From the NCBI GenBank assembly GCA_016199805.1, contig JACQGC010000005.1:6019-70018 (forward strand): a stretch of 64,000 bases of DNA, given 5' to 3'. Below the pieces are notes generated by a model that ran no database searches, was not told where the DNA came from, and was given only the letters and a program-made list of their open reading frames with translations. Source of the DNA: Candidatus Nomurabacteria bacterium (GTDB lineage: Bacteria > Patescibacteriota > Minisyncoccia > Phycocordibacterales > UBA9973). Positions 5,830 to 61,225 of this stretch are shown here, piece by piece. Position numbers and translations under genes: made by a program. Position 1 is the stretch's first letter; every line of letters starts with the position of its first letter.

Positions 5830-6861
5830 CTAAAAATTAGCGGTAGCGGTATAGGTAATCACTCCTCCATAATTGCCGGCCGAAGTCATCGCGGCTATGT
5901 TTGCAAGATAATAAGCGTTGATGGTTTCAAGAGGTGTGGGATTGCTCTTGGTCACGATAAGCTGATTGGAACCAGTGGTGAATTTCCAATTTCTATTTGC
6001 GGGAACTACGTTATGGTCATAAGAGCTTGTAATGGTGGCACCGTTGTCGGCAGAAAAAGCCAGAGCAAATTGTTTAGTACTTGGTAATCCGTCCGGGTCA
6101 TTTGTAATAGTCGCTTCGGTAAGAACTTCTGGCCCCGCAAAAGCGGTACCATTGTATGAGATAGAATAGCCTGATGTTGCATTAGTAGAAACTTGTAAGC
6201 TGTTTCCACTCGCATCTGTGCTACTACCCGAAGTATCATTGGTTGCAAAACGGGCCCCCGATGGAGTGACGACACCAAAGCCGACAGTATTAGTGGAAAT
6301 GGAAAAAGAAATGACTTGAGGTATGGTAACCGTTTGTTCACTTGAAAGGGTAAGTAAATTGCTGTTATTATCCAATGTTCCAACTACAAAAAAATAATCT
6401 CCGGCACTCAAATTTGTATAAGTATAATTTAAACTAAGGCCAACCGGAGTATAAGCATAAGGACCACCTGAAACCGTAGCGATGCCAACCTTATAACTGG
6501 CTACATTGTAGCCGAGGCCCGCTGTCGTCGGCGTCCAAGTTAAATCTACATTGGAACCATTCAATATAGCCGAGAGTGTCCCCTTTGTAACATATGGATA
6601 ATACAAAAGACCGGACCGCTCTATAAAACTGGTCGAGGATGACTGTCCTGCGCCAAACAGATTTTCACTTGAATACAATTTGAAACTGCCGGAACTTTCA
6701 TATCCACCACCACCACTTACCACCGGATCCCTGATGATAAAACTGGGACTGGTCAAATCAGAAGCATGAATAAAATACATCGGCAAAAGAACACCCAGGG
6801 TTATAGAAAATATTATTTTTAATTTTTTATTTTTTATTTGCGGCATTGTATTTTTATTCAA
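5830..6861 (-). CDS. Secreted beta-repeat protein, paralogue B. Its C-terminus ends with YTATANF.
   Basis: It has a signal/TM segment. It is homologous to the 4658..5689 product throughout the C-terminal 200 aa. Confidence 0.55.
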   Translation of the reverse strand: MNKNTMPQIKNKKLKIIFSITLGVLLPMYFIHASDLTSPSFIIRDPVVSGGGGYESSGSFKLYSSENLFGAGQSSSTSFIERSGLLYYPYVTKGTLSAILNGSNVDLTWTPTTAGLGYNVASYKVGIATVSGGPYAYTPVGLSLNYTYTNLSAGDYFFVVGTLDNNSNLLTLSSEQTVTIPQVISFSISTNTVGFGVVTPSGARFATNDTSGSSTDASGNSLQVSTNATSGYSISYNGTAFAGPEVLTEATITNDPDGLPSTKQFALAFSADNGATITSSYDHNVVPANRNWKFTTGSNQLIVTKSNPTPLETINAYYLANIAAMTSAGNYGGVITYTATANF

Positions 6862-7895: not shown

Positions 7896-10800
7896 TCAAA
7901 AACTGGGTGTCTCCACGGGAACGCTTGCGGGATTGTCGGCTGGAGCGGTATCGTCTGGAACACTACCAGATACAACATTATCTGGAGTTGGAGTTAACGC
8001 AGGGTCTTGGGTTGGTAGAATGGGTTCTGGGGTTGGAAGTGAAAACGGCACCAAAGATGGGCTGGAAATTTTACTGCTAAAAGTCTTGGCGCTCTTTACC
8101 GCCAAAGCAATCCAGCTGAAACTGATGTTTTGTTTTGCTGTGTCTTTCAAAGTGATAGTAAAACCTTTTTCTGATTTATTAGTTACCAGATACTGCACAT
8201 TGTCTGCAAATAAACTATTTGTCGCTTCAGTTTGAGCATTTTTAATTGACTGAATTAGGGAAGCATCAGTTTCAGTATTTAGATTTTCCAACTGTGGGTC
8301 GGCATCGAGAGTAATAGTCGTGTTCACAATGGGTTGTTCTAAATATTCTTTATCAAAAACTATATCTACGGATTGATCTCCTTTATTTATTTTTGCAAAA
8401 CCGGCCGTATCTGTCGTAAAGTATGGTCTGCCAAAAAATACAGTATCACTCATAAACATCACCGCATCCTTGCCGGAGCTGATAGTATCCACCGTCAAAC
8501 CATTGGCAAATATTTGTGGTGTAATTATTTCCATTGAGGCAGCCACTCGGTCGGTAAAAATCTCGGACAAGTTTTGCATATTGGTTTTTTGATTCCGCAC
8601 CTTAATAAGGAAATCCAAGATTCTGGACTCTACTGTTGCGGGAGTATTGGAAAGAGTTGAAGTCAAACCGTCGGAAACAACCGGAGAAAGAGCCAAGGAA
8701 TCTGTGCTACTTCCATCAGCAGTTGATGGAGACGAAAGCCCATTTTGTGCTGTAGCTGTTACAGCATCCAAATCTTCCTGCATCAACATCTCAATAGATG
8801 CTCCGCTGTAATTTGCCAAATTTACAAACACTACCAATGTTCCGCATTTTGTATTTGGCAATTGACCCAAGCCCATAGATGGACAATCTTCCAATTTATT
8901 TGTGTCCATATTTTCCAGAGCCGTGCCTATTACCCTGCCGGCCTGTGTCGCCCGCATAGCATAACCCGGAATGCTGGAAGAAGTCAGATAATCCCCTGCT
9001 TTTATCGGGCCATTTTCCGTACTGAATCTTACCGGCACACGGCCAACGAGCGCTATCGGCACAGAATCCACAGTCTTTGAACCGGCCACAAAACCTGGAG
9101 CGGTGGAAACGACTCCGACTAAAGTATTTTGATATTGTCCCGTGGAACGCAAGACCCCTTGTGAATTGTTTGGGTCTACCATCACCACTTCTCCTTTGGT
9201 CAGACTTTCGGTTGATGTATAATTTTCCGCCAAATCGGCGCCACCGGAAAAGAATCCACCGTTGGTTGACGACATGATATTTCCGTCGGATGTCACACGC
9301 AAAATACTGAGCCCATTATTTTGTAAATTCATAAGGTCCATCCCATTTGTAATCTGGTACGAATTTACAGTCGGTAAAGATATATTACGATAACTATATG
9401 TTAAACCACTAGAAGAATTATAAACACCATTTAAGTTGAGACCGAATGTAGGAAAATCACGACGGAAATTTATTTCCACTTGAGCCCATTGTTCACCTCC
9501 GGCGTTTCCGATAGACCCTCCAGGTGAGCTTATACTATTCCAAGTAGCCACACCGAGAGCGGTCTGGGTCGCAGCCACTCGCGCTTCCATACGCACAAAC
9601 TGGTCCGGAGTTTGTTGCCAATCAAGTGTAGAATTTGAAGCAAGTGCCGGCACATTCATTTCTTCAGAAAGATATTGTCCATCAGCATACCAACCAGCAT
9701 CGTAAATATTGATAGCCTTGGACCCAGATGATCCTCCGAAAAGAGTAATAAATTTTCCATCTGGCCTTTGAAAAGAAAGGGCACCGTCACCCACGCCACC
9801 ACCGAGATACTGACCAGTGGTTGGGTCTGTCACCGAATCAGCAAAAGTTGTAATAACATTGTCAGCAATAGTTCCAACTAAGAAATATGGAGAGGTGTTA
9901 TTTACTCCACCAGCTATTGTTGTTCTATAAATATTACGTGCTGTTGTTCCGGTAGGACCAATAGTAACAGCAGTAAGACTTTCTTGTCCAAGCGTTGTAA
10001 GAGTACATGACTGTGTAGCAGATGGAGCAGAAAGTGGTGATTCAACACCGCCAATAACGTAAGTATATCTCCAGAAGTGTACACCGGTATTACATAAGTT
10101 AGATCCACCAGAAGCTGGAGCAGAAGAAGTAGGAGCTGGTGGCGCAGTATTAAACATTGTAGGTCCTACAGCCACAGTACCGACAGGAGCACCAACAGCA
10201 GAAGTTGCGCCACCCCAAGGGAAATAAATCTCAGTGAGCACATCATTGTTTAGAGCCAAGTTTCCTCCAACAATTAAAAACGTACCATCAGCTCTCGGAA
10301 TAACATGAGAGCCTCTTCCTAGCATTGCAGGAAAAGTTACACCCGCTGCTTCTGTACCGTTGTAAGGATTGACTATACCTGACAGAGTACCACGAGCATT
10401 TGCTGTAGCTTCTCCTCTTATTATTATCCAATACCCGTCTTGTCTTTGAAATGCGAATCCTCCAGATCCATTAGCTCCGCCAAGAACAGCTCCAAGAAAA
10501 AATGTTTTGGTGTTTGCATTATAAGTCATAGTAGCAGTAGATACAGTTCCAACAGCAGACCCTGCTATAACTTTATACATGTTGTTCATAGAACCCTGAA
10601 GCGGTATAGCAAACCCTCCTAAATTTGTAGCTGCTGTCTGTAAAGGACCCGCTGTCATAGTATTGCGAACTGGATCATAAAGAGATGTAGAAGTAGCGCC
10701 AGCACCAGGTAAAATAGTATAAGTGCCATCAACATTAAGAATCGTAAATGCACCACCAGATGGAGCAGTACCAACTATGGATGGACCGAGAGTAAAACGT

Positions 10801-13800
10801 GAACCAGAGGGGGCATATTGATCATAAATATTTGTCACAGCTGACCCTCCACCAAGCACTACTAAATATTTACCGTTGGGACGTCTAATAGCAAAACCTC
10901 CTGCACCTACTGTAGCAGTAGGCTTATCTCCAGTGGCTGTCTGGTTTATAAATGTTGATGTTGTAGAATCATATAGCTCAGCAGATCCTCCCGCTACTCC
11001 ACCATTTACCACCAAGAATGTTTTATCGTCACGAGCAATAACAAAAGTACCATAACCAGCAAGATTATTTAGAAACTGATGATCATTACCAAATGATCCC
11101 ATATAAAATCCTAAACCTGTGGCACCTCCAACTTGAGTCGTTGGCGTAATACGACCATAAGGAAGTGTGAGTTGATTATTGATTGATTCAACACGAGCAG
11201 ATTCACCGCGAGAAAGCATCGGACCGGAAGGCGTGAGCTGCGCAAATGCCGCACCGAGCGAAACATCCGTCGCTCCGTCAACATAAGAAGTTGTAGAGTT
11301 ATCGTTTAAAGTTGTAACTAAAAATGGAGTATCGGTGACAGCAAGCGCCGCGGCTGTACGATAAATTTTTCTGGCAGTTGTACCGGACGGACCAATTGGA
11401 ATATTTGTCAGAGTAACTTTATCTGTGCCACCAGCGCAAGAGGCAGTAGCACTAGCTCCTAGTTGCGACTCTGCTCCGTTGATAATAAAAGTAACAAACC
11501 AAAAATGGGCTCCAATAGTACAAGTACCTCCGCCCGCTGACTCTGTGGCTGTGGGCGCCACAGGCACTGTCGCCGCTACTGCGGTGTAGCTATCCGGAGT
11601 GCTAAAATCAAATCCTAATTTTTTAAATACGGCAGAATTGTCAATAGAATAATCAAACAAGGTTGGCGTCGTAAAATCATAACGAAGTACTGTCGTATTG
11701 TTCCCCGTCCATGTGCCACGATCATCTGCCAGCTTTTTCGGCATAGCGCGATTGAAGTGTACGGCAACCTTCACGCAATTTGCTCCGGACACAGCACGAA
11801 TATTATCTCCAGGGTTTTGAATTTCTTGCCACGAAGCGGCGGCGAGGGGTCCCGAACAACCGGAAGAATTCACGGCAGTTTTTACAAAAAATTGCATAGC
11901 TTTAAATGCGGTATTGGTGACTCCATTTCTGGCCGCCGCATACACAGCTTCCAGCTGAGCCGTCCAACGCAAAGTAGAACCAGTGCTAATATATGAATTT
12001 GAAATATCTTCCGACGTATACCAAGTCGTAGCCGGAGTGATAGAATATGTGGCACCAAGTGATGCATCAACTGTTGCATCGGAACAAGATGTCGTGGTGT
12101 TATCAGCAATACTACAAGAACCTGAACTTATTAATTTTGGCAATCCTGTATCCCCTGCTGTTGTGCGATAAATCTTGCGCGCTGTTGTAGCCGTACCACC
12201 TGGGCCAATTGGAATACCGGAGAGTGCTACCGTTCCGTTAGCTGCCGTACATGCGACGATGTTTGATTTCTGGCTCAATTCGGATTCCACTCCATTTGTT
12301 ACAAATGTCGTGTAATAAGAATGCAGTCCAGCATCACAGCCCGCACCAGATGAAGGAGTACCAGCAACCGGTGCCACAGGAAATGGATCATACATAGGCA
12401 TATTTGTACTGAAATTATTTGTGGCTTGGCTCGCATTACCGGTGATAATCTGCCATGTTCCATCTGTGCGCATTATTGAATGAGCACCAGCACCAATCGT
12501 AGACGGAGCAGTGCCACCAGTGGAAGTATAGGTCGCAAATGAGTCCGTGTCTTGACTATAAATCCACGCATTGGCCGTAGCCCCTCCACCTAAAATTAAA
12601 AACTTTCCATTTTGAAGCGGGATAGCGTGAGCCCCATCTCCCAAGGCAACCGTCGGGCCGTTGTTGGGACGGCAAGTCATAGTATTGGCTGACGGATCAT
12701 AAACAGCCGAAGAATTTATTCTTGAAAGAATGACATATTTACCATCTTGACGTTTAAGAGCCACCGAACCAAGACTATTTATTCCGCAAGTATTTGTAGC
12801 TTGGTTTCCATCAAGACTTGGCCCAGCGGAAGTAAATGCTCCTATTGTGGCATTTCCTGAATATGGATTATAAATATTTGTATTTGAAGTAGAACCTCCA
12901 TTTACTATGAGCGCACGTCCATCGGGCATGGGAAGTACGAGTGCTCCTGCTGCCCAAACACCTGCCGAAGCAGGTGGACCAAGTCCAAAAGTATTTGCCA
13001 CAGGATCAAATATTTGTGTGGTACCTACAGAAGTAGATGCGCCAATAGTCACGAGATATTTCCCATCTGGACGTTTATATGCTACAGTACCCGCCCCAGT
13101 GATGGCAATAGTCGTTCCAGGCCCAAGAGAACTTGGAACAGTACCCATCGTATCAATGTTAGTTGTAGTAGTTGTTGCACCAGTAGCTGTTCCACAGATA
13201 AGAGTATATTTACCGTCTGGTCTTGGAAGAGCTATTGATCCTACACCAACACCAGCAGTAGTTGCAGTATTACAAATAATTGATTGTGATGCAGTCATTG
13301 CACCTGTAACCGAATCATAAAGAGTGGTTGATGTCGCCCCTCCACCATGTACTATCAAGTATCTACCATTCGGACGCGTAAGAGCCAAGGCACCTGCACC
13401 CACGGCGACTGATGTCGTGGGTTGAGATGATGTCGTTATCGTACCCGTACCAGAGTTTGCCGGAATACCATCCGCCAGCTGTAAGCGTCCGCCAGTATTT
13501 AAAAGATTTGAACCTATTGTTCCCAAAGAAAAATCCGTAGCAGCAGTACGAACGATAGAAGAATCCGAACCATTGACGGTAAGTCCCCCATTTGAACCAA
13601 CGGTGAATCTGTCGGTACCGTTTTGATTTATATCAATAGCGTTGCCGGTGCCGGTGCTGTTGATGGACAGCCCAGCTCCGGTGCCAGCATTGGAGATAGT
13701 CAGTGCGTCAACAGCCCCGGCAGAAAGTTGGTCAACCTTCAGTGCATAGTTGGCAGTGGTTCCACCCGATACCGGATTTTGAAAAATCACCGAACCATCG

Positions 13801-14687
13801 GTGGAGCTTAAGGCAATCGTCACATTACCCCCATCAGTATCATTGTTGTAAGTTGTTTGTAAATCCGAACTGCCGCCGCCTGCCCCGCAACCGGCATCAG
13901 TCGTATTACATAAAACTTTTGTCGTACCGTTTTCATTCACTTTGTATTTATTGGCGCTGGAATCATACCAGATATCTCCAGCCGCTGCGCCGGAGGTGCC
14001 CGCCACGCCAGTCTTTAAGAAATCTCCGGTAGCAATTGTGGTTCTTCCAGAAGCGGAATCTAAGGTCAAACCACCAACGCCACCAGAAGAAACAGTCACT
14101 GCGCCGACTCCAGTGTAGGACAAAGCCGAAAGAAGTCCTGGAATAGTCAAAGCTCCTGAACTAAGAACTGGAATTTGATTACCGGTAGCGGATTGAGATG
14201 GAGTAAACCCCCCCACGGTGCCGGAATTGATAGAATACCCTGAAGAAACCACTTGTGGACGCGGAGTGAGAGATTCAAATGTAACACCGACGCAAGAACT
14301 GGCCACTTGAGCTGCCACTTGCACATCTACATATATAGTATTATTACTTTGAAAATCATAATCAAGCGTGTCTCCCCCGGTTGACACATCCCCAATCCCC
14401 GCGTTAAAAACTCCTTCACGAGTGAGGATGGTCATCGTTGACGGAGCACCCGTGGGCCAAACTTTGGACCCTGCCGTTGATGCATCATATAAAGAAAACT
14501 TATAACAATAGTTTGTGCCACTCGTGCCTCCGAGCAAAGCCCCGCTGGAATTTAAAAGTCTGCCTTGAAAACTAATAATTTTGGGTACCCCTGGCGCAGC
14601 ATAGGCAAAATTTATAAAAAAAGATACGACAAAAAAGCACGTTAAAATCCGTAAAATATTTTTATGTTTAGGATTGTTTTTTCCCAT
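7896..14687 (-). CDS. Giant (2263 aa) secreted surface protein. It has many Kelch/beta-propeller-like blades and a domain repeated four times.
   Basis: It has a signal peptide. It has at least 11 blade-like repeats of the form (R/K)PDGKY...GG. An internal roughly 60-aa domain containing TARKIYRT is repeated four times. It is a single uninterrupted 6.8-kb ORF. Confidence 0.7.
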
Positions 14688-15302: not shown

Positions 15303-16352
15303 TTATTCACTAACCCACAAATAAAAATAATTTTTTATTTTTATAGAAAATTTGTAAGCATCTGTGTGTGAAAGCACTCCTAGGTATGATGCTAAGGTCG
15401 CTTTGATTTTGTCTTTGCCAACTTCCCCTCTTCGGTATGCTTCAATTTTATCTTCAAATTTTCTGATAATCCTCTTTTTCGTTCTTTTACGAATGAGAGT
15501 ATGGGTAGAAAAGATAATATTCCCCAAAAAATCTATGCCCTTGATATAACTTAATATCTCAACTTTTTCCGGATGTAAATGTAAAAATAAAGAATCTCGT
15601 AAAAATATATTTACGGAGTCTAAAATATGGAGTAAATAATCTCTATCTCTTGAAACAATCACAAAATCGTCAGTGTAGCGCGCATAATAACGAACTTTGA
15701 GTTTGTGTTTAATAAATTGGTCAAATTCATTCATATAGATATTCGCAAAAATCTGCGAGGTGAGATTGCCTATAGGCACACCCTTTCTTCCCAATAAATC
15801 TGACGCAGAACTTGTATAACTCTCGATTATGTTTTCCAGAAGCCAAATTATATTCGGATCTTTAATCTTCTTATTTAAGATTGCCAACAAAATATCGTGG
15901 TCAATTGAATCAAAAAACTTACGCACGTCACACTTGAGCACATAGCATGTCTTTGTATTGTTTCTGCTTTCTTTTCGCAACATACCTCGCAAAGTTTCGA
16001 TCCCCTTATGAGTCCCCTTGCCTATTCGGCAAGAAAACGAGTTGGAAATAAATGTTGGTTCAAATATTGGGTTGAGTATATTAAAAATTGCATGGTGGAG
16101 GACTCGGTCTCTGACGGTGGCTTTATGTATATGCCTCAATTTCGGATCTGATATATAAAATCCTTCGTACTCGCCGTGTTTATAGCTTTTGTTTTTTAAA
16201 TCTCGAGATAGTTTGAAAATATTACTCTCAAGCTCACTCTCAAACATCAATACATCTATTTTCGATCCCTTTCCGTGTTTAAATTCTTTCCACGCTAAAA
16301 ACAAAGCCTCGGGTTGAACAATCTTATTAAATAAATCTTTGTGAATAATCAT
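15303..16352 (-). CDS. Reverse transcriptase of the diversity-generating retroelement (DGR) type.
   Basis: RT motifs are present: the LFxxIxxxxAxxAWKEFKHGKGSK N-terminus, the IGNLTSQIFANIYMNEFDQF motif 4 with the DGR-specific SQ, and the YARYTDDFVI YxDD box. It is about 350 aa and has no maturase or endonuclease domain. The start was chosen at the internal Met (16352). Confidence 0.85.
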   Translation of the reverse strand: MIIHKDLFNKIVQPEALFLAWKEFKHGKGSKIDVLMFESELESNIFKLSRDLKNKSYKHGEYEGFYISDPKLRHIHKATVRDRVLHHAIFNILNPIFEPTFISNSFSCRIGKGTHKGIETLRGMLRKESRNNTKTCYVLKCDVRKFFDSIDHDILLAILNKKIKDPNIIWLLENIIESYTSSASDLLGRKGVPIGNLTSQIFANIYMNEFDQFIKHKLKVRYYARYTDDFVIVSRDRDYLLHILDSVNIFLRDSLFLHLHPEKVEILSYIKGIDFLGNIIFSTHTLIRKRTKKRIIRKFEDKIEAYRRGEVGKDKIKATLASYLGVLSHTDAYKFSIKIKNYFYLWVSE

Positions 16353-16706
16353 ATGAATCAAAATGATGTGCCAGTACTTAATAAATCGTATGAATTGTAT
16401 AAGTTGTTTCACGAATATCGCAAGGTTGTTCCAAAGCAAGACAGATTTACCATATATGAACGAAGTGAGCATGTAATGCTGGGGATTATAGAACTTCTGC
16501 TTGAAGCGAGTTACGGCGGCAAAGAAAGAAAGCTAGTCACCCTAGAAAAAGCCAGCGTCAAACTCAATGTGCTCCGATTCCTGATTCGCATAATGAAAGA
16601 AACAAAAACATTTGATATGAAAAAATACATTTCACTGGAACTACTTGTTGATGAAATCGGACGAATGATTGGAGGATGGATACGTTCGCTCAATCTCAAT
16701 AAATAG
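16353..16706 (+). CDS. avd: Avd-like accessory variability determinant, a four-helix-bundle protein of the 23S rRNA IVS protein family.
   Basis: It is about 118 aa. The helical pattern YELYKLFHEY...PKQDRFTIYERSEHVMLGIIE...LEKASVKLNVLRFLIRIMKE...ISLELLVDEIGRMIGGWIRSL is typical of the Avd/IVS family. It is divergent from the RT gene, and the two start codons are back-to-back (CAT|ATG). Confidence 0.7.
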   Translation: MNQNDVPVLNKSYELYKLFHEYRKVVPKQDRFTIYERSEHVMLGIIELLLEASYGGKERKLVTLEKASVKLNVLRFLIRIMKETKTFDMKKYISLELLVDEIGRMIGGWIRSLNLNK

Positions 16707-16710
16707 CTTC

Positions 16711-16750
16711 ACACAAAAGGTATCCAAAAAGGATACCTTTTGTGTTTTAC
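16711..16750 (+). terminator. Strong hairpin (15-bp stem, AAAAA loop) followed by TTTT. It is the likely avd terminator. It also lies in the spacer between TR and RT on the other strand.
   Basis: ACACAAAAGGTATCC-AAAAA-GGATACCTTTTGTGT is followed by TTTAC, directly after the avd stop codon. Confidence 0.55.
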
Positions 16751-16762
16751 AAAAAGAGACTT

Positions 16763-16891
16763 CGGGAGGAAGCCGGACGCCGAGCCAAAGTTGTCGTTGG
16801 CATTGTCGACCGTGTTCGTGTCAAACTTGAGCTTGCCGTCGTTCCAGTTGAGGTACGGAGCGTGATCGAAGCGAACAGAGGAATCCGGATT
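16763..16891 (-). repeat. DGR template repeat (TR).
   Basis: This 129-bp segment is near-identical to 17300..17428. The two differ at 18 positions, and all 18 are adenines in this copy (read on the minus strand). In the target frame this copy contains multiple AAC/AAT codons. Confidence 0.85.
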
Positions 16892-17186
16892 CTGCCTTTA
16901 TCCATCTATGGCACCGGAACTTGAAAGCTTTGCAAAGCAAAATGCAATCTTGCTCCTGAATTTAACTTCACAACACTTATTTTTTAAGTAAGTTTGTGTT
17001 GGGTAAAGACAAGCAGTATCTCTTCATAGTAACGCTCTTTTTGCAACCGTAGTCGCAAAAATTCTGGCTAGTTTCTTTGTGAAAAGAAAGAGTTCGGCGA
17101 TGGCAATCCATAAACTGCCATACATGAGCTTAGACTCAAGGTTAAGTATATTAAAAGTAAATTTAAAAATCAATATGAAATGAAAT

Positions 17187-17225
17187 CAGGGCTACCCACA
17201 TTGTGTTGTGGATAACCCTGATATT
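17187..17225 (-). terminator. Hairpin about 70 nt downstream of the DGR target gene stop. It has T-rich flanks on both sides. It is a candidate terminator or homing-associated structure.
   Basis: CAGGGCTACCCACATTGTGTTGTGGATAACCCTG is an imperfect palindrome. It has a T-run on the plus side and a T-rich tail on the minus side. Confidence 0.35.
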
Positions 17226-17290
17226 TTTTGCCGCGAACTCAAGAATCAAATGAAAGAGTTCAAAAAATTCAAGTATTCGAAGCGATAGAA

Positions 17291-18184
17291 TCACTTCTGC
17301 GGGAGGAAGCCGGACGCCGAGCCAAAGTAGCCGAAGGCACCGCCGACCGCGCCCGTGCCAAACTTGAGCATGCCGTCGAGCCAGTGGAGGTACGGAGCGA
17401 GACCGAAGCGAACAGAGGAAGCCGGATTATCAAACTCTTCGCCGGGCAAGTCCATGTGAAGTTGCTCCCAGCGAACGAAACGCTCCGGATGAGTGAGTAT
17501 GATAGCACCTCCAATAACGGAAGTGGCGCCGAACTCATTGCGTACGAAGACTTCGTGTGCGCGCCGAGTGGAACGTCCGCGGTGACGCATTCCGAGCTGG
17601 AGAGCCGCGACGAGGATATCGCCATTGCCCTGTTGTTCGGAGAGCGTTTCGATTGCCATTGCCGTCCGCGAATGAACGCGTAAACGGTCCATTTGACTCG
17701 CGCGGTAATTGTAGAACGAGCGCGACGCGGCAATTTTCGAGAGAACGGCGCCAGTTGCAATGGCGCGCGGAAAAGCGAACCAACCCACAAACGGCAACGC
17801 GTCTTCCGGAACGAACGACTTCAGCTCTGGTCGGATTTGTGCATACGCCAGCGCAGAGTCTGGATTGAGGTTAAAAACCTCCGCCAGGTATAAAATCTGG
17901 TCACAGATGGACTTCGGACCCTTGTACTCTGGCGGGTACGTGTAGGAGGATGCGACCTCCTCGCTTGCGTACTGGTTCGGGCTGCCGTATTTACGCACGA
18001 GATCTCGGACGAAGTCGCGAACGTCGTTCATGGCTCCCGTGCCGTTGTCGATGAACCGAACGCCACCCTCGTACGAGTCGAGATATTTTTCGACCACGAG
18101 AGGAACCTGCGCTTGAATCATTCCTGTAATATGCTCACGCTGTTCCGGCGACGCCGGGGCGGCTTCTGACAACATCGTTTTCAT
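17291..18184 (-). CDS. DGR target protein (297 aa). It has no signal peptide. The variable repeat encodes its C-terminal about 43 residues, a probable C-type-lectin / FGE-like variable fold.
   Basis: An AAGGAG RBS sits 6 nt before the ATG. The gene is GC-rich (about 58%), in contrast to the genome. The C-terminus ...NPASSVRFGLAPYLHWLDGMLKFGTGAVGGAFGYFGSASGFLPQK is encoded by the VR. The stop codon lies 7 nt past the VR. Confidence 0.75.
   Translation of the reverse strand: MKTMLSEAAPASPEQREHITGMIQAQVPLVVEKYLDSYEGGVRFIDNGTGAMNDVRDFVRDLVRKYGSPNQYASEEVASSYTYPPEYKGPKSICDQILYLAEVFNLNPDSALAYAQIRPELKSFVPEDALPFVGWFAFPRAIATGAVLSKIAASRSFYNYRASQMDRLRVHSRTAMAIETLSEQQGNGDILVAALQLGMRHRGRSTRRAHEVFVRNEFGATSVIGGAIILTHPERFVRWEQLHMDLPGEEFDNPASSVRFGLAPYLHWLDGMLKFGTGAVGGAFGYFGSASGFLPQK
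17300..17428 (-). repeat. DGR variable repeat (VR) at the 3' end of the target gene.
   Basis: It is the 129-bp cognate of the TR. All 18 mismatches correspond to A in the TR. The last 27 nt (minus sense) contain no adenine and are identical between the two copies, making this an IMH-like GC-rich end. Confidence 0.85.
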
Positions 18185-25319: not shown

Positions 25320-25922
25320 TTATACTGCTTTTTGAATAATTTTCTTTATATTCTGTAATTCTATCAATTGAACAGGGCTGCCTTCTTGATTTGTAAGTTT
25401 TTTCAACTTTTTTGAAAGGCGTTTATATCCGCTATTTTCTACAGGAAGCGCGCTTGAGAAAATACGAACTTTTGTTTCTCTTTTAATGATTTCTTCTATC
25501 AAGAAAGCAAAATCTCCATCACCTGTAAACAACAAAACCTCTGTATCTGCTTCAGAATTTTTTAGGACATCGAGCGTCATTTCTACGTCACAATTACATT
25601 TCCAAGAATACCCCATATCAACTTTATGAACCACATCTATTTTACAATTCGGGCAAATAACGCTGCTTACCTTGTCCTGATTTTTATAAACACGATATTC
25701 TTTTGCGCGAACAATAACTTCAGATTTATTGCTAGTTAAATTAAGAAATAGATTTTTTCTAATTTCATCGTTTTCTTGTATTCCAGGATAAAAGAAGATT
25801 TTTTCACAATTCCAACGTGTCTCCAGATAATTAATTAGTTTTTGCCAATCAAAAATAAAGTTTAACACTTTTAATGCTGTTGTTTCTGTATTTTGAACAT
25901 CTATAAAGGCAAATGTTTTCAT
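25320..25922 (-). CDS. NYN-domain (LabA/PIN-like) predicted ribonuclease with a small zinc-ribbon insert.
   Basis: It carries FIDVQN and GDGDF motifs. It has a CPNC...CNC insert. Confidence 0.5.
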   Translation of the reverse strand: MKTFAFIDVQNTETTALKVLNFIFDWQKLINYLETRWNCEKIFFYPGIQENDEIRKNLFLNLTSNKSEVIVRAKEYRVYKNQDKVSSVICPNCKIDVVHKVDMGYSWKCNCDVEMTLDVLKNSEADTEVLLFTGDGDFAFLIEEIIKRETKVRIFSSALPVENSGYKRLSKKLKKLTNQEGSPVQLIELQNIKKIIQKAV

Positions 25923-32974: not shown

Positions 32975-33235
32975 TTATCCGTACAGTTCCGGATGTGTGC
33001 CGATGTCGTAAAAAACTACTTTATCTTCAGCAATATATTTGAAAATCGCCCGAAAGTTGCCGGTTATGTTTATACTACTATACCCTGCATATTCTCCGTG
33101 CAATTCATGATTTTTTAGAATTGGGTGATATAAATTTACTTTAAATAGTTCTAATCTTTCAAAAAATTTATCTACTACCCTTTTAGGAATTTTTTTGATT
33201 TTTTTATTAAAATCGTGAGAATAAGAAATTTGCAT
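32975..33235 (-). CDS. Type II toxin of the RelE/ParE (YafQ-like) family.
   Basis: It is 86 aa. It shows the RelE-like pattern (KKIPKRVVDKFFERLELF...GNFRAIFKYIAEDKVVFYDIGTH). It lies immediately downstream of a DinJ-like antitoxin. Confidence 0.6.
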   Translation of the reverse strand: MQISYSHDFNKKIKKIPKRVVDKFFERLELFKVNLYHPILKNHELHGEYAGYSSINITGNFRAIFKYIAEDKVVFYDIGTHPELYG

Positions 33236-33238
33236 AAA

Positions 33239-33511
33239 TTATACATCCATGGCTTTTCTCATTTCCTTCATGTCAGTATAGAATTTCAACTTACCGCTTT
33301 TTAATTCTTTTTCTCCATTTCTAATAGACCTTCTCAATCTAGCATTTGGTATTTCGGGAGTGGTAAATTCTATTCTTTTTTCGGCTATGATTTTTCTGAC
33401 CGCATGATTTAAGGCAATAGAAAGAGTCAGCCCCATTTCGTCTAGGGTTTTTATAAGTTCTTTCTTTACCTTTGGGTCCGTATTAAAATTTATTACTGCA
33501 TTGTTACTCAT
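33239..33511 (-). CDS. RelB/DinJ-family antitoxin.
   Basis: INFNTDPKVKKELIKTLDEMGLTLSIALNHAVRKII matches the DinJ ribbon-helix pattern. The start was placed at the internal Met. There is a 4-nt gap to the toxin gene. Confidence 0.55.
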   Translation of the reverse strand: MSNNAVINFNTDPKVKKELIKTLDEMGLTLSIALNHAVRKIIAEKRIEFTTPEIPNARLRRSIRNGEKELKSGKLKFYTDMKEMRKAMDV

Positions 33512-33551
33512 GTATACAGTATATAGTATTGTATATATAAAAGTCAAGTCT

Positions 33552-58006: not shown

Positions 58007-58552
58007 TTACTCCACCCAATTAAATAAATCCTCGGAAAAAGATACGTTGGAAGTACCGGAACTCTGCGTCCAAGAAACTTTAGAAAAAATTCTCACATCA
58101 TTTGCATTAATGGTTGTCATCCAAACTTTACGGACAAAACCGGAGTCTGTGCCGCTTGAAACAGTGTCATAACCTCCGTTGTTTATATATAATTTACATT
58201 GGCTGAGGGCAGTACAGAGAGAAACATTAAAAGGTACCACCGGTTTGACAAAACCGCATTCGCTCCCTGGAACGCATGAAGCTAGTTTGGTTTTAAAACT
58301 ATCCCAACCAATCTGTCCGGTAACACTGTAAAGCACAGAAGTATCCCGCATATTTCTGAGATATTCTATTCCTTCTTGAGCTAAATAAGCGCCCACTATT
58401 TTCTGTTTGGCATAAGTAGTACTGCTGATACTGGAAGCCAAAATCGACATCAAGCCGAGGAGCGACATGGAAAAAATAGAAATGGCAACAAGTGTCTCGA
58501 CTAAGGTGAATGCTTTATTTGTTTTATTTGTTTTTTTAAAAATTAGTTTCAT
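58007..58552 (-). CDS. Type IV pilin-like protein (pseudopilin/minor pilin).
   Basis: It has a class III signal, KAFTLVETLVAISIF. Confidence 0.7.
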   Translation of the reverse strand: MKLIFKKTNKTNKAFTLVETLVAISIFSMSLLGLMSILASSISSTTYAKQKIVGAYLAQEGIEYLRNMRDTSVLYSVTGQIGWDSFKTKLASCVPGSECGFVKPVVPFNVSLCTALSQCKLYINNGGYDTVSSGTDSGFVRKVWMTTINANDVRIFSKVSWTQSSGTSNVSFSEDLFNWVE

Positions 58553-58590
58553 CTCTTTATGACTTTATAAACTTTCTACTTTATAACTAA
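58553..58590 (-). promoter_or_regulatory. Intergenic AAAGTTATAAAGT-motif copy upstream of a pseudopilin gene.
   Basis: On the minus strand it reads AGTTATAAAGTAGAAAGTTTATAAAGTCATAAAG, about 5 nt before the ATG. Confidence 0.35.
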
Positions 58591-59166
58591 TTATAAATCT
58601 ATGACTCTTTGCGAAACAGATGTTTGTAAAGAAAACGTTGTCGTCGTGGTAGCGTTTAAAGTGATTGTTCCGACCAGTTTGATTGTCACAAAAGGTTGTT
58701 GGGTGTCGCCGGCCGGAGGTTCGGCTCCCAAAACGGAAAAACCGGAAACCGCGGAGAGAGTAACTTCATCCGGATTCATCTGGACAAAAGTGACTCCTCC
58801 ATCAACCGACTTAAAAATTCCGGGCTTGCCGGCATAGGTGCCTATGTAGTAAACCCATTGTCCGCCAAGCGATGACTTGAAAGAAATTCCACCGCCGCTT
58901 GCGCAACTTAAAGGGGTGGTGAGAGTGAGATTTCCGTCAGCGATGCAATGATAAGCATACCCCGTCCTCAAGTTTCTACCCATATCTTCCACTACATAGC
59001 TCAAGTTGTCCATAATGGAACGCATGCTTTGTGATTTCTTGCTGAGTAAATTGGCGTTGAGTAATGCGCCCATGCCCGCCATCACAATGACAATGAAAAG
59101 AGAGATGGCAATCATTGTTTCCAAAATAGTATAGCCTGATTCTTTTTTTATAATATTCTTCTGCAT
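58591..59166 (-). CDS. Type IV pilin-like protein (pseudopilin/minor pilin).
   Basis: It has a class III signal, SGYTILETMIAISLF. Confidence 0.7.
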   Translation of the reverse strand: MQKNIIKKESGYTILETMIAISLFIVIVMAGMGALLNANLLSKKSQSMRSIMDNLSYVVEDMGRNLRTGYAYHCIADGNLTLTTPLSCASGGGISFKSSLGGQWVYYIGTYAGKPGIFKSVDGGVTFVQMNPDEVTLSAVSGFSVLGAEPPAGDTQQPFVTIKLVGTITLNATTTTTFSLQTSVSQRVIDL

Positions 59167-59184
59167 TTCTTTATAACTTTATAA
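59167..59184 (-). promoter_or_regulatory. Intergenic AAAGTTATAAAG-motif copy upstream of a pseudopilin gene.
   Basis: On the minus strand it reads ATTAGTTATAAAGTTATAAAGAA-ATG. Confidence 0.3.
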
Positions 59185-59817
59185 CTAATTTACCTGTATT
59201 CTGCCCGAAGGATATATTTTTATTAAAGATGTCTTCCCCTTCGGTGAACTGACGGTGATTTGCATATAATCAAAACCGGTTACGGTTGTACCGTCGGAAT
59301 AACTGAAAATTGCGCTCGAATTTGGTCTTTTGAAAGTGACACAAATGGGATTCGTAATTGAAGTAGCCACTGCGCCCACATAACTGTCTATTCTGGATAC
59401 ATAATTACCTTTTGTTATAGCAAAATAATTCACGCACTCTCCAGTGCAATTGCCACCGCTAGCAAAATTGCTATTATCAAGGTCTACAAAATAAACAAAA
59501 CTTTTACTGTTTACTCCACTGGAATTAAAATAAATTCCATAAGCTGGTTTCCAAGGAGACACCGTGGGAATTTGGACCGGCTGCAACCCCGAGAGCGAAG
59601 CTTTTTGCGCAGCCACTACTTGTAAGGCAATATCGCTCGCCAAATTTTTAAGATCAATCCTCGACTGAAAATCTCCATAATTAAATATTACCACCGAAGA
59701 CATAATAGTAAAAATGATGAGAACGACGATGAGCTCTATATAGGTCATGCCCTTGTTTAGCTTATAGCTAATAGCTTTTAGTTTGTAGCTTTTTAGTTTT
59801 CTGAAAAAATAAATCAT
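59185..59817 (-). CDS. Type IV pilin-like protein (pseudopilin/minor pilin).
   Basis: It has a class III signal, KGMTYIELIVVLIIF. Confidence 0.65.
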   Translation of the reverse strand: MIYFFRKLKSYKLKAISYKLNKGMTYIELIVVLIIFTIMSSVVIFNYGDFQSRIDLKNLASDIALQVVAAQKASLSGLQPVQIPTVSPWKPAYGIYFNSSGVNSKSFVYFVDLDNSNFASGGNCTGECVNYFAITKGNYVSRIDSYVGAVATSITNPICVTFKRPNSSAIFSYSDGTTVTGFDYMQITVSSPKGKTSLIKIYPSGRIQVN

Positions 59818-59833: not shown

Positions 59834-60640
59834 TTAAAAAAGACCAAAAAGACTAAGACTAAAAATAAACGCCAGCGCTGTGCCAAGAACCAAATACGGT
59901 GCAAAAGGAATTTCGCTTTTCATGCCATGTTTTGATGAAAAAATAATCAGGATTATGCCGATAACCGCTCCGGCCCAAAAAGCCATGACTACGCCCGATA
60001 GCGCGCCAGATAGCCCGAGCAACCAGCCGATAGAAAGAGCTAGCTTAGCGTCCCCTAGCCCCATCCACCTGCCACCCGAGACCAGCCAGAGCAAAGCAAA
60101 AGGAGCGGCAATCAATGGCCCCGCCAAAAATTCCAGCAGTGAGGGTATGTGAGGGAAAAAACCGAAATAACCCAAAAAATTACTGTTGCCAAAAATAAAC
60201 AGACCGAGAAAAGTCAGAATACCCAGGGTCAGAGAAAGTGAATCTGGAATAATTTTATGCCTGATGTCATAAACCGCGATGACTAACAAAAGCGAAAATA
60301 CCACCGCGTAATAAGCGTAAGTGAAACTAAAAGAAAAAGTATTCAGAAAGAAAATATCTTGAAACTTCAGAAAGATGGCGGCAAAAATTAACCCGGTCAC
60401 CAGCTCCACTAGTGGGTACTGGATGGATATTTTTGTCTTGCAGTTCCGGCACTTCCCCCCGAGCCAAAGAAAACTGAAAACCGGAAAAAGCTCGTACCAA
60501 GACAGAGTGTTCCTACAAGACATGCAAGCCGACCTGCCGCCGAAAGTTTTTTGGGTATTCAGACGCAAAATGACGACATTCAAAAAGCTCCCAATGATAA
60601 GACCGAAAACAAAGAAAATTATTGTCAGTAATAAAATCAC
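59834..60640 (-). CDS. pilD: Prepilin peptidase (A24 family).
   Basis: The N-terminus IIGSFLNVVILR is followed by a CxxC...CxxC Zn motif. There are multiple TM helices and conserved Asp residues. Confidence 0.85.
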   Translation of the reverse strand: MILLLTIIFFVFGLIIGSFLNVVILRLNTQKTFGGRSACMSCRNTLSWYELFPVFSFLWLGGKCRNCKTKISIQYPLVELVTGLIFAAIFLKFQDIFFLNTFSFSFTYAYYAVVFSLLLVIAVYDIRHKIIPDSLSLTLGILTFLGLFIFGNSNFLGYFGFFPHIPSLLEFLAGPLIAAPFALLWLVSGGRWMGLGDAKLALSIGWLLGLSGALSGVVMAFWAGAVIGIILIIFSSKHGMKSEIPFAPYLVLGTALAFIFSLSLFGLF

Positions 60641-60676: not shown

Positions 60677-61225
60677 TTATGTGCAAGCTAAGTCGTTGGC
60701 AGTAAGATTATCGGTTTCTTGTTTTGATTTTCCCATACTATCTACACACCACATCACCGGCGCTCCGCTGGCGCTAGCCGATAAGGGCACTTCTGCGGCC
60801 CAAGCAGTTCCAGTGGCATCCACGTGGCAAGTGGCAGTGTTATATGTACCGGGAGTGGCAACGGCATTATTCAAAGTTACTCCGCCGGCCGCCTTAGCTG
60901 CAGCCAACATTTGTGCATTAATCCCTAAAGCTCCCTGAGCTGCCATTGTACCAGTACAAACAGTTGTATAAGTATTAGCTGCCGCAGTATTGGAATTGTA
61001 AAAAATTTCTCCCTGCCTTTGAGCGTTTACCAAGTTTGCCTTTACAGCTCCGTCACTTCCCTTACCTCTGGCATTATTTAATGATGCCATAACAACCGAA
61101 GCCAAAATACCAATGATGGCCACAACAACCAAAAGCTCAATCAACGTAAACCCGCCCCCCTTCGGGGTCACACCAAATTTTGGTGTGCGGGTAAACCCCT
61201 TATTTAAACTAGATTTTTTCTCCAT
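60677..61225 (-). CDS. pilA: Type IV major pilin (PilA-like). It has an unusually long 28-aa leader created by a 45-bp in-frame insertion.
   Basis: GGGFTLIELLVVVAIIGILAS is a canonical prepilin helix. The leader reads KGFT-RTPKFGVTPKGGG-FTLIEL. The short mature protein has a disulfide pair. Confidence 0.8.
   Translation of the reverse strand: MEKKSSLNKGFTRTPKFGVTPKGGGFTLIELLVVVAIIGILASVVMASLNNARGKGSDGAVKANLVNAQRQGEIFYNSNTAAANTYTTVCTGTMAAQGALGINAQMLAAAKAAGGVTLNNAVATPGTYNTATCHVDATGTAWAAEVPLSASASGAPVMWCVDSMGKSKQETDNLTANDLACT
61146..61197 (-). mobile_element. Small GC-rich palindromic insertion, a 37-bp core flanked by an 8-bp direct repeat GGGTTTAC, inside the pilA leader-coding region.
   Basis: On the minus strand it reads AAGGGGTTTAC-CCGCACACCAAAATTTGGTGTGACCCCGAAGGGGGGC-GGGTTTAC-GTTG. 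Removing the core plus one repeat copy restores KGFTLIEL. Confidence 0.55.

Follow-up and report, generated by a model that had tools for sequence, protein, structure and literature searches.

A palindromic mini-element that probably circulates among the prepilin leaders of Patescibacteria

What is a 45-bp, strongly structured insert doing at the leader cleavage site of a pilin gene, and why does the gene still read as an intact prepilin? The question is raised by a pilA-like gene on the minus strand of a 64,000-nucleotide stretch of a Candidatus Nomurabacteria genome (assembly GCA_016199805.1, contig JACQGC010000005.1, forward-strand positions 6,019 to 70,018), which was analysed as a whole and which we call the window. 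Our analysis suggests, with a probability that we put at roughly 60%, that the insert is a copy of a small non-autonomous palindromic mobile element that circulates among Paceibacteria and Nomurabacteria and that persists in leaders removed by the prepilin peptidase PilD.

Read on the minus strand, the 5' region of the gene runs AAG GGG TTT AC, then CCGCACACCAAAATTTGGTGTGACCCCGAAGGGGGGC, then GGGTTTAC and GTTG, the 45 bp of the insert being in frame. A GC-rich core of 37 bp (61154-61190) stands between two copies of GGGTTTAC, the 5' copy at 61191-61198 and the 3' copy at 61146-61153. A first-pass annotation of this DNA had described the same layout, and we find it as described except that, with the 5' copy at 61191-61198, its end coordinate falls one base short. 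Comparison of copies, discussed below, draws the boundaries of the element itself slightly differently, and gives the following parts.

60677-61225, minus strand: pilA-like major prepilin gene, 182 aa, from open reading frame (ORF) and translation.
61191-61195, minus strand: 5' TTTAC repeat, covering, in the original G-F-T site, the codon for Phe and two of the three bases (AC) of that for Thr.
61151-61190, minus strand: the 40-bp element, CCGCACACCAAAATTTGGTGTGACCCCGAAGGGGGGCGGG, delimited by alignment of copies; its last three bases, GGG, are the new Gly(-1).
61169-61187, minus strand: hairpin 1, CACACCAAA-A-TTTGGTGTG, a near-perfect palindrome in RNA and DNA folds.
61156-61167, minus strand: hairpin 2, CCCC-GAAG-GGGG, in RNA and DNA folds.
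61150-61155, minus strand: 3' arm of the outer stem, GCGGGT, which pairs with ACCCGC at 61187-61192.
61146-61150, minus strand: 3' TTTAC repeat, encoding Phe+1 and Thr+2 of the predicted mature pilin.

The host Gly codon, GGG at 61196-61198, stands before the 5' TTTAC. The protein starts with MEKKSSLNKGFTRTPKFGVTPKGGG|FTLIELLVVVAIIGILA, and its translation continues past the predicted cleavage site as MEKKSSLNKGFTRTPKFGVTPKGGG|FTLIELLVV...; owing to the insert the predicted leader is 24 aa long, with cleavage predicted at G24|F25 (TLIELLVVVAIIGILA). We judged type IV prepilins by Gly at -1, Phe, Met or Tyr at +1, Glu at +5, a hydrophobic helix of ~20 residues after that, and a cognate A24 peptidase. 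The protein reads GGG|FTLIELLVVVAIIGILASVV across the site, which is a class III signal with Gly at -1, Phe at +1, Glu at +5 and the hydrophobic helix. Pfam N_methyl matches it above cut-off at residues 24-45 (E = 1.4e-7), a public protein of identical sequence is annotated as a prepilin-type domain protein from Candidatus Nomurabacteria (Patescibacteria/CPR, the candidate phyla radiation), and more than 3,500 homologues were found. Deletion of the core and one repeat in silico leaves KGFTLIE, as the first-pass annotation had noted, and this is the leader form of most homologues.

The two hairpins that had been noticed at first reading are both predicted in the RNA and the DNA folds, and a third helix comes in addition: ACCCGC/GCGGGT closes a three-way junction over both hairpins, each of its arms taking in bases of the flanking repeat. 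The predicted minimum free energy is -32.7 kcal/mol as RNA (z = -3.7) and -15.8 as DNA (z = -3.6). In the window the 37-bp core occurs once, with a chance expectation of 0 at up to three mismatches, and no further copies or half-copies of the element were found in the 64 kb; GGGTTTAC occurs five times against 1.9 expected. The 40 bp have no capacity to code for a transposase. An Rfam search of the insert returned no family, its sole match being tracrRNA at chance level (17 bits where the gathering score is 70; E = 3.8).

Is the long leader an insertion at all? It could instead be ancestral and kept for a function of its peptide, the short leaders being deletions, and the fact that the peptide FTRTPKFGVTPKGGG is common to many proteins would fit such an origin. 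Among the 120 best homologues of the pilin, however, most have a short leader (M..KKG|FTLIE) and eight have the extra FTRTPKFGVTPKGGG, and in a distance tree of the mature major-pilin domains these eight carriers lie scattered among short-leader proteins. In the DNA of four insert-bearing homologues the insert is nearly base-for-base the same, and the adjoining pilin codons, although conserved as protein, differ synonymously. A scan of GTDB with one genome per species (185,579 species genomes) found 12 copies in 11 species, all of them Patescibacteria, and a scan of JGI metagenomes, with a pattern constrained at the first two positions of each codon and unconstrained at the third, matched 23 loci. 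Several of the loci came from Hainich groundwater and Ga0172379 samples. With the window included this makes 41 copies, 38 of them unique, in Paceibacteria and Nomurabacteria, and the overall tally from genomes and metagenomes is about 45. A scan of viral contigs for the element gave 0 hits and hence no sign of a phage vehicle.

The alignment of these copies is telling at the level of codons. Mean pairwise nucleotide identity is 0.96 in the core (37 unique genic copies), 0.95 in the 3' copy of the repeat and 0.85 in the 5' copy, and outside the insert it is 0.44 upstream and 0.56 over the next 48 nt. The same amino acid is encoded by the same codon in 96% of pairs within the insert, against 42% in the following 16 pilin codons, which implies that the insert is conserved at the DNA level and not as a leader peptide. 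Third codon positions in the stems are constant across the metagenome copies although the search pattern left them free; over the positions that the search did not constrain, changes were found in 1 of 246 cells in stems and in about 20 of 164 cells in loops. Synonymous sites that are frozen in the insert and scrambled in adjacent codons of conserved protein sequence argue strongly against an ancestral leader, as do the patchy distribution of the insert, its presence in paralogues that are otherwise far more diverged, the tolerance of copies whose peptide has decayed, and the existence of an intergenic copy (both described below). We regard an ancestral long leader as extremely improbable, and have rejected it on the synonymous-site evidence together with the intergenic copy.

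For the comparison of alleles we took the 120 closest relatives of one insert-bearing minor pilin (PilV-like), of which 25 carry an intact copy, 61 are empty at the site and 33 have long leaders of other kinds. The nearest orthologues are filled at 90% identity, empty at 83%, and filled but mutating at 76% (EFIRIPKFGVIPKGGG), while more distant relatives have leaders of the same length in which the sequence is scrambled (RFVCTSGFGITPNEHG, RLFRKPEFGMITGERG). Decayed copies of unchanged length are found in otherwise intact genes (P0148, P0154, P0156), a leader SFTRTG|FT is probably the remnant of an internal deletion, and one gene carries a tandem double insertion with three G-F-T triplets, GFT-PTPMNIGVSSDKAER-GFT-HTPKFGVTPKGGG-GFT. 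Gain, tolerance, decay and re-insertion can thus all be seen among orthologues, and the decayed copies in intact genes argue that the host gene has no need for the structure. The two flanking repeats of a copy differ from each other in 7 of 38 copies, or about 2% per site, and divergence from the consensus is ~1.7% in the stem columns of the core and ~5.7% in its loop columns; the divergence of flanks and core agrees with copies that are young and roughly neutral.

Where do the copies sit? In 40 of the 41 cases the place is the same, directly after the G/A-F/Y-T codons of a prepilin gene, in one orientation and in one frame, at a distance from the start codon of about 7 to 19 or more codons. 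The host genes come from many species and from at least four families of pilin paralogues.

Family 1: major pilins (FTLIELLVVVAIIG).
Family 2: PilV-like minor pilin (FTLVETLVAISIFT), to which window ORF 58007-58552 belongs.
Family 3: second minor pilin (F/YTIIETMIAISLF), to which window ORF 58591-59166 belongs.
Family 4: a fourth type (FTLVETLFGIAIF).

The first-pass annotation had taken the insert for a small non-autonomous, GC-rich, hairpin-forming element that had recently entered a short-leader allele, and on this point the empty alleles and the further copies bear it out. It would have given this view up had related strains shown neither an empty-site allele nor another copy of the core, and both exist. 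The insertion is no one-off event of this genome, for it recurs at the same codons across families and species. One or two copies were seen per contig or genome. Loci L002, L009 and L038 have two copies within one gene cluster, and in L002 both share a loop variant, AAAAATT, that occurs in no other copy, which indicates copying within that genome. The 41st copy, in L020, is intergenic: it lies 13 nt upstream of the start of recA, on the other strand, with flanks cgTTTAC and TTTAC, and it implies that the element is a DNA entity able to exist outside pilin genes. Next to it, at 1361-1427 of L020, stands a different palindrome of 67 bp with a perfect 21-bp stem (CCCCCACACCTGTTTTTGCGA...TCGCAAAAACAGGTGTGGGGG), which has TTTAC before it and none after it, and whose stem resembles the outer stem of a 70-bp element in L009.

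What exactly was inserted, and where does the Gly residue at the cleavage site come from? It had been proposed at first reading that the GGGTTTAC flanks are an 8-bp target-site duplication, which recreated the cleavage site fortuitously. The flanks are present on both sides, but the comparison of copies divides them into two parts of different origin. The codon before the 5' TTTAC varies (GGG, GGA, GGT, GGC, GCA for Ala, and ACG in the intergenic copy), whereas the triplet before the 3' TTTAC is GGG in 37 of the 38 unique copies. In the search of the PilV-like family, empty sites have Gly at -1 in 52 cases and Ala in 9, the 5' triplet of filled sites is GFT in 19 and AFT in 5, and all 25 copies, those in Ala hosts included, have GFT as their 3' triplet, as do 8 of 8 copies of another set. 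Since the 5' triplet mirrors the host and the 3' triplet is constant, we conclude that the 3' GGG is part of the element. A duplication of 8 bp is therefore rejected: TTTAC alone, at most 5 bp, behaves as a duplicated target, and the GGG is element-borne. Nor is Gly(-1) restored by luck, for the element brings it along systematically, also in hosts with Ala(-1).

Such hosts form a small class of their own. About 15% of the PilV-like minor pilins of this group have Ala instead of Gly at -1 (K-A|FTLVE), among them the window gene 58007-58552 (position 58513). It is unusual to meet Ala(-1) in a class III signal peptide, and such a site becomes a Gly(-1) site once the element has inserted.

The status of the remaining five bases bears directly on how the element might move. 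TTTAC precedes every intact copy except those at Y-type sites, where TACAC stands in its place, and one or the other motif is found on both sides of nearly all copies, the intergenic one included. In the second minor pilin family (F/YTIIETM) empty sites have Tyr in 14 cases and Phe in 1, and filled sites have F/F flanks four times and Y/Y flanks twice; at the Y-type sites (L009 at 5033, L038 at 284) the flanks read TACAC..TAYAC, with Tyr codons on both sides. Such agreement of the flanks, F/F as well as Y/Y, is expected if the target is truly duplicated and TTTAC is preferred. We consider it probable, but not certain, that the flanks are a 5-bp direct repeat (at most 5 bp) made by duplication of the target. 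Two observations go against a simple duplication: the flanks of L043 are discordant, 5' TACAC against 3' TTTAC, and the third base of the Phe codon differs between the two repeat copies in five of six informative cases.

These discordances would be expected if the element derived instead from an insertion sequence (IS) of the IS200/IS605 family, as a palindrome-associated transposable element (PATE) that moves by "peel-and-paste" and inserts 3' of a TTAC-like target without duplicating it, so that the 45-nt unit CCGC...GGGTTTAC would carry GGGTTTAC as its own end. Members of this family depend on DNA hairpins near their ends (PMC5934647, PMC3201880, PMC5027513), and for IS608 the insertion point lies specifically 3' of TTAC, with recognition through subterminal hairpins (PMC5934647, PMC3201880). 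The element resembles IS608 and the PATEs in the TTAC-type target that stands alongside it and in its single orientation, which all copies keep relative to an asymmetric target (PMC5934647, PMC3201880, PMC5027513). It has two hairpins, of which the second stops precisely 10 nt short of the 3' TTTAC, like the right end of IS608, and the second palindrome of L020, with TTTAC on its 5' side only, would fit as well. However, a fixed end predicts neither the Y/Y flanks of L009 at 5033 and L038 at 284 nor the concordance of flanks throughout that paralogue family; the flanks behave mostly as a true 5-bp duplication. Moreover, the hairpins CACACC../..GGTGTG and CCCC/GGGG are unrelated, whereas those at the two ends of IS608 are similar, the left hairpin begins just 4 nt away from the junction, known PATEs are far longer than the element, and no Y1 transposase (TnpA) was seen in the sequence examined, which did not extend to complete genomes. 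On balance we consider such a derivation unlikely.

How could an insertion across a cleavage signal be tolerated? In the mobile-element reading that we prefer, the element, 40 bp with a 5-bp flanking repeat, would integrate next to TTTAC, which would then stand on both sides of it. The end of the element, ...GCGGG, would put a Gly codon before the downstream TTT-ACN and so complete a G|F-T-L-I-E class III signal, while the original G-F-T would be pushed 15 residues upstream into the leader. Removal of the 24-residue leader by the neighbouring PilD would leave the mature pilin unchanged and the insertion close to neutral. Only insertions at a prepilin G-F-T in the orientation that places GGG before TTT-ACN would leave a working gene; an element inserted the other way round would put Arg at -1 and not be retained, which would account for the single orientation and frame of the copies. 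In the window the gene has the following neighbours.

59834-60640, minus strand: prepilin peptidase PilD (peptidase A24), with Pfam matches A24_N_bact (4.4e-32) and Peptidase_A24 (8.3e-10).
58007-59817, minus strand: three more prepilin-like genes without the insert, reading K-A|FTLVETLVAISIF, S-G|YTILETMIAISLF and K-G|MTYIELIVVL.

The PilD gene lies directly downstream of pilA, providing the cognate A24 peptidase, and its product is the enzyme expected to cut off the enlarged leader. Type IVb prepilins have leaders of about 15-30 residues, a range that includes 24. The adjacency of PilD and this range make removal of the leader plausible. Cleavage by PilD at the second G|F, and with it the neutrality of the insertion, are what we would predict from this arrangement. 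The first-pass annotation had attributed the tolerance of the insert to its being in frame. In frame it is, but this is hardly the whole reason, and its position in a part of the protein that is cut off is the more likely cause. The three insert-free prepilin genes of the window are empty sites of paralogue families that are filled in other genomes: the FTLVETLVAISIF-type gene has filled counterparts in L006, L010, L013, L025 and others, and the F/YTIIETM-type gene in L009, L017, L018, L030 and L038.

Two features of the leader-coding part of the element deserve mention. It contains a run of six G (AAGGGGGGCGGG; window 61151-61163, minus strand), a potential site of slipped-strand frameshifting, which is reminiscent of the poly-G phase variation known in the signal-peptide region of Neisseria pilC; no length variants of the run occur among the 38 copies. 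It also contains an in-frame GTG (Val17, at 61169-61171, minus strand) which, as a start codon, would give a short and typical leader, M-TPKGGG|FTLIE. The frame that begins at the upstream ATG is open in all copies, and nothing points to use of the GTG.

The fold itself can be followed beyond the element proper. Other inserts are found at the identical TTTAC|CC...GGG|TTTAC position with different interiors and the ACCC...GGGT closing stem in common, among them a 43-bp perfect hairpin at a prepilin site in L014 (584-636, minus strand) and a 70-bp three-way junction in L009 (5665-5744), with ACA-TTTAC (Thr-Phe-Thr) on its 5' side and GGG-TTTAC on its 3' side. Hairpin 2 (CCCC/GGGG) is replaced by CCCT/AGGG in L044, by GCTCGC/GCGAGC in L045 and by GCTCAC/GTGAGC in L046, and the closing stem ACCCGC/GCGGGT reads ACCCCC/GGGGGT in L046 and ACCCAC/GTGGGT in L032. 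The changes in these four are compensatory, keeping all three predicted helices. Within hairpin 1 of the element, variation among copies is limited to the central AAAATTT, the stem columns being invariant and the loop columns variable. A covariation analysis of the type A copies found 97.5% of cells paired with no excess over shuffles, the copies being too alike, and covariation-type support for the fold comes from the sister variants only. On these comparisons the fold is a conserved property of the element lineage. This would fit recognition of the folded strand by a mobiliser, and equally a function for the host.

Such a host function is the subject of a further alternative, in which the three-way junction would act in cis, as an RNA or DNA structure that pilin genes have recruited, co-regulating several of them through binding, stability or translation rate and kept by selection, not mobility. 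The near-invariant stems with their variable loops speak for it, as do the compensatory changes by which sister elements hold the fold and the presence of the element in several pilin genes of one cluster (L002, L009, L038). The only non-pilin copy, a single case, lies just upstream of recA, a gene that is often co-regulated with competence pili. Against a selected function stand the absence of the element from most homologues and most pilin genes, including three of the four in the window, and the decayed same-length copies in intact genes (P0148, P0154, P0156), which mark it as dispensable. The variable distance to the start codon (about 7 to at least 19 codons) and an upstream identity of 44% argue against control of initiation in particular, and there is neither an Rfam match nor covariation within type A. 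We therefore find a cis-acting function improbable.

Several other inserts and repeats in leaders may or may not belong to the same lineage. AT-rich leaders GFTHKNILKKISGG in L039/L040 (about 2020-2060) have the ends of the element and may be old decayed relatives. In L041/L042 a GC hairpin at the prepilin site encodes SASACRRR. Just ahead of Gly(-1), minor pilins in L006 (about 6380), L026 (about 4400), L022 (about 7050) and L030 (about 1150) have another hairpin, GGGCCGAAAGGCCC, which recurs in leaders and encodes the peptide GRKAL..KG; in L022 it stands in tandem with the element. P0134 (110 aa) contains repeated RTPKFG.TPKAAA-like segments and looks like a spurious ORF across tandem palindromic repeats with ACACCAAAATTTGG; these may be distantly related to the element or form a repeat family with no relation to it. 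A generic screen of all loci for TTTAC|CC..GG|TTTAC gave one extra match, at 6837 in the RecJ-like gene of L035, which we judged to be chance since its interval of 25 bp is not divisible by three and reads as ordinary coding sequence.

How well does a circulating mobile element account for the whole pattern? A number of points weigh against it, beginning with the discordant flanks of L043 already described. The window holds 248 TTTAC sites, 15 of them intergenic and one a prepilin site, and equal use of the tolerated sites would put about 6-12% of the copies in pilins, where in fact 40 of 41 lie; for concreteness, if five independent events are assumed, finding four of the five in pilins would by our own calculation have a probability of roughly 1e-3. 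One or two copies per genome in the contigs seen is low for a miniature inverted-repeat transposable element (MITE). Neither a transposase or recombinase nor a matching element end turned up in the part of the window's ORFs that was scanned or in ~294 kb of related loci, where half-copies are absent as well, complete genomes not having been searched. Finally, the near-invariant stems and varying loops of type A could reflect selection for a host function. A preference for TTTAC is thus insufficient to explain the location of the copies: either targeting reads far more than TTTAC, or retention is strongly biased. The alternative to specific targeting would be a very fast loss of intergenic copies in streamlined genomes. 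As to the machinery, the element would be mobilised in trans, probably by an enzyme that reads a folded single strand.

The possibility of specific targeting can be taken further, though we do so tentatively and with rather less than even confidence. The element may represent a class of site-specific DNA parasite of the prepilin-peptidase cleavage site, in which a diversified family of 40-70-bp three-way junctions and hairpins, each bringing the Gly codon that restores the site, actively targets any type IV prepilin G-F-T. Targeting would then extend beyond the 5-bp repeat and perhaps be structure- or guide-based, with the leader peptidase of the host acting as the "splicing" step. Such a parasite would in effect do at the protein level what introns and inteins do, without encoding anything.

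The same site fidelity might also arise with no transposition at all, by homing-like gene conversion between prepilin genes, within genomes and via DNA uptake, through the homology of G-F-T-L-I-E and possibly a site-specific break. A near-exclusive conserved site, low copy number, one orientation and spread between species are hallmarks of homing, and the mixed flanks of L043 resemble co-conversion. The synonymous differences right beside the element and the weak similarity of paralogue DNA, however, mean that conversion tracts would have to stop exactly where the element does, the surroundings of the intergenic copy in L020 show no homology to pilins, and we know of no endonuclease candidate for conversion of the insert. 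That the host bacteria carry DNA-uptake pili (PMC7143001) is in favour of this route, which we nevertheless consider very unlikely.

If the insert is a mobile element, which of the known kinds does it resemble? Selfish repeats that survive inside genes are rare, and the Rickettsia palindromic elements (RPEs) are the textbook case. RPEs insert in frame and are translated as an extra peptide without destroying the host protein (PMC10969869). The present element shares with them the palindromic character, the in-frame position within an ORF and the translation. RPEs, however, are ~100-150 bp long, occupy dozens of unrelated genes per genome in the Rickettsia lineage and are kept in the mature protein, whereas this element has 40 bp, one or two copies per genome and Patescibacteria hosts, is nearly confined to one codon triplet of prepilins, and lies in a segment expected to be cut off; no sequence relationship is implied. 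MITE-like features are its lack of autonomy and of an ORF, the short flanking direct repeat, the strong secondary structure, and the nested or tandem and decayed copies. Its ends may also count as short terminal inverted repeats; only CCCGC/GCGGG matches perfectly (8 of 10 if extended), and the ends double as the closing stem. It differs from MITEs in being much smaller, in its low copy number with no multiple dispersed copies, in its single orientation and in its extreme site restriction, and the ~294 kb of loci and the window ORFs scanned yielded no parent IS sharing its ends, whole genomes not having been searched. We do not file it as an RPE or a MITE, since size, copy number, dispersed targets and parent IS do not fit.

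Other comparisons are partial as well. With homing elements such as inteins and group I introns it shares the habit of a parasite at one conserved site of a conserved gene whose product is removed, leaving the host protein unharmed; unlike them it encodes no enzyme, and its removal would fall to the host prepilin peptidase instead of self-splicing. The long-leader pilA product resembles type IVb prepilins in its long leader ending in Gly(-1) and in the A24-family peptidase by which it is predicted to be processed, but the long leader is here secondary to a DNA insertion into a short type IVa-like leader and contains a vestigial second G-F-T. Repetitive extragenic palindromes (REP) and bacterial interspersed mosaic elements (BIME) are extragenic and number tens to hundreds per genome, in contrast to an element that is intragenic in 40 of 41 copies and present once or twice per genome. 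Our literature search found no description of leader-site elements in CPR pilins.

More generally, a far smaller element than the RPEs has apparently found a different safe harbour, the cut-off part of a secreted-filament subunit, and brings its own Gly(-1) codon with it. This would explain many of the "long-leader" pilins of Patescibacteria in databases, and it advises caution in annotation, as N-terminal diversity of pilins in these lineages would be partly repeat-derived. Compact and defined in sequence, the element would also serve to trace recent exchange of DNA between ultra-small bacteria that have not been cultivated. Its site fidelity points to a targeting or mobilising activity in these genomes, and there is a real chance that the site specificity reflects something new.

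Elsewhere the window contains a classical diversity-generating retroelement (DGR; 15303-18184), with a reverse transcriptase ORF at 15303-16472 on the minus strand (RVT_1, 1.6e-26), a template repeat (TR) of ~120 nt near 16760-16880 and a variable repeat (VR) near 17297-17417, which is the 3' end of the minus-strand ORF 17291-18184. Every mismatch between the two repeats falls at an A in the template (24 A-to-N differences). The reverse transcriptase was considered as a mobiliser of the pilin element and rejected, as it belongs to this classical DGR with its own TR/VR pair. The window further holds a YafQ/ParE-like toxin gene with a small upstream partner ORF, an NYN-domain protein, and an ORF of 2263 aa with internal repeats of ~150 nt, their coordinates being listed jointly as 32975-33547, 25320-25922 and 7896-14687.

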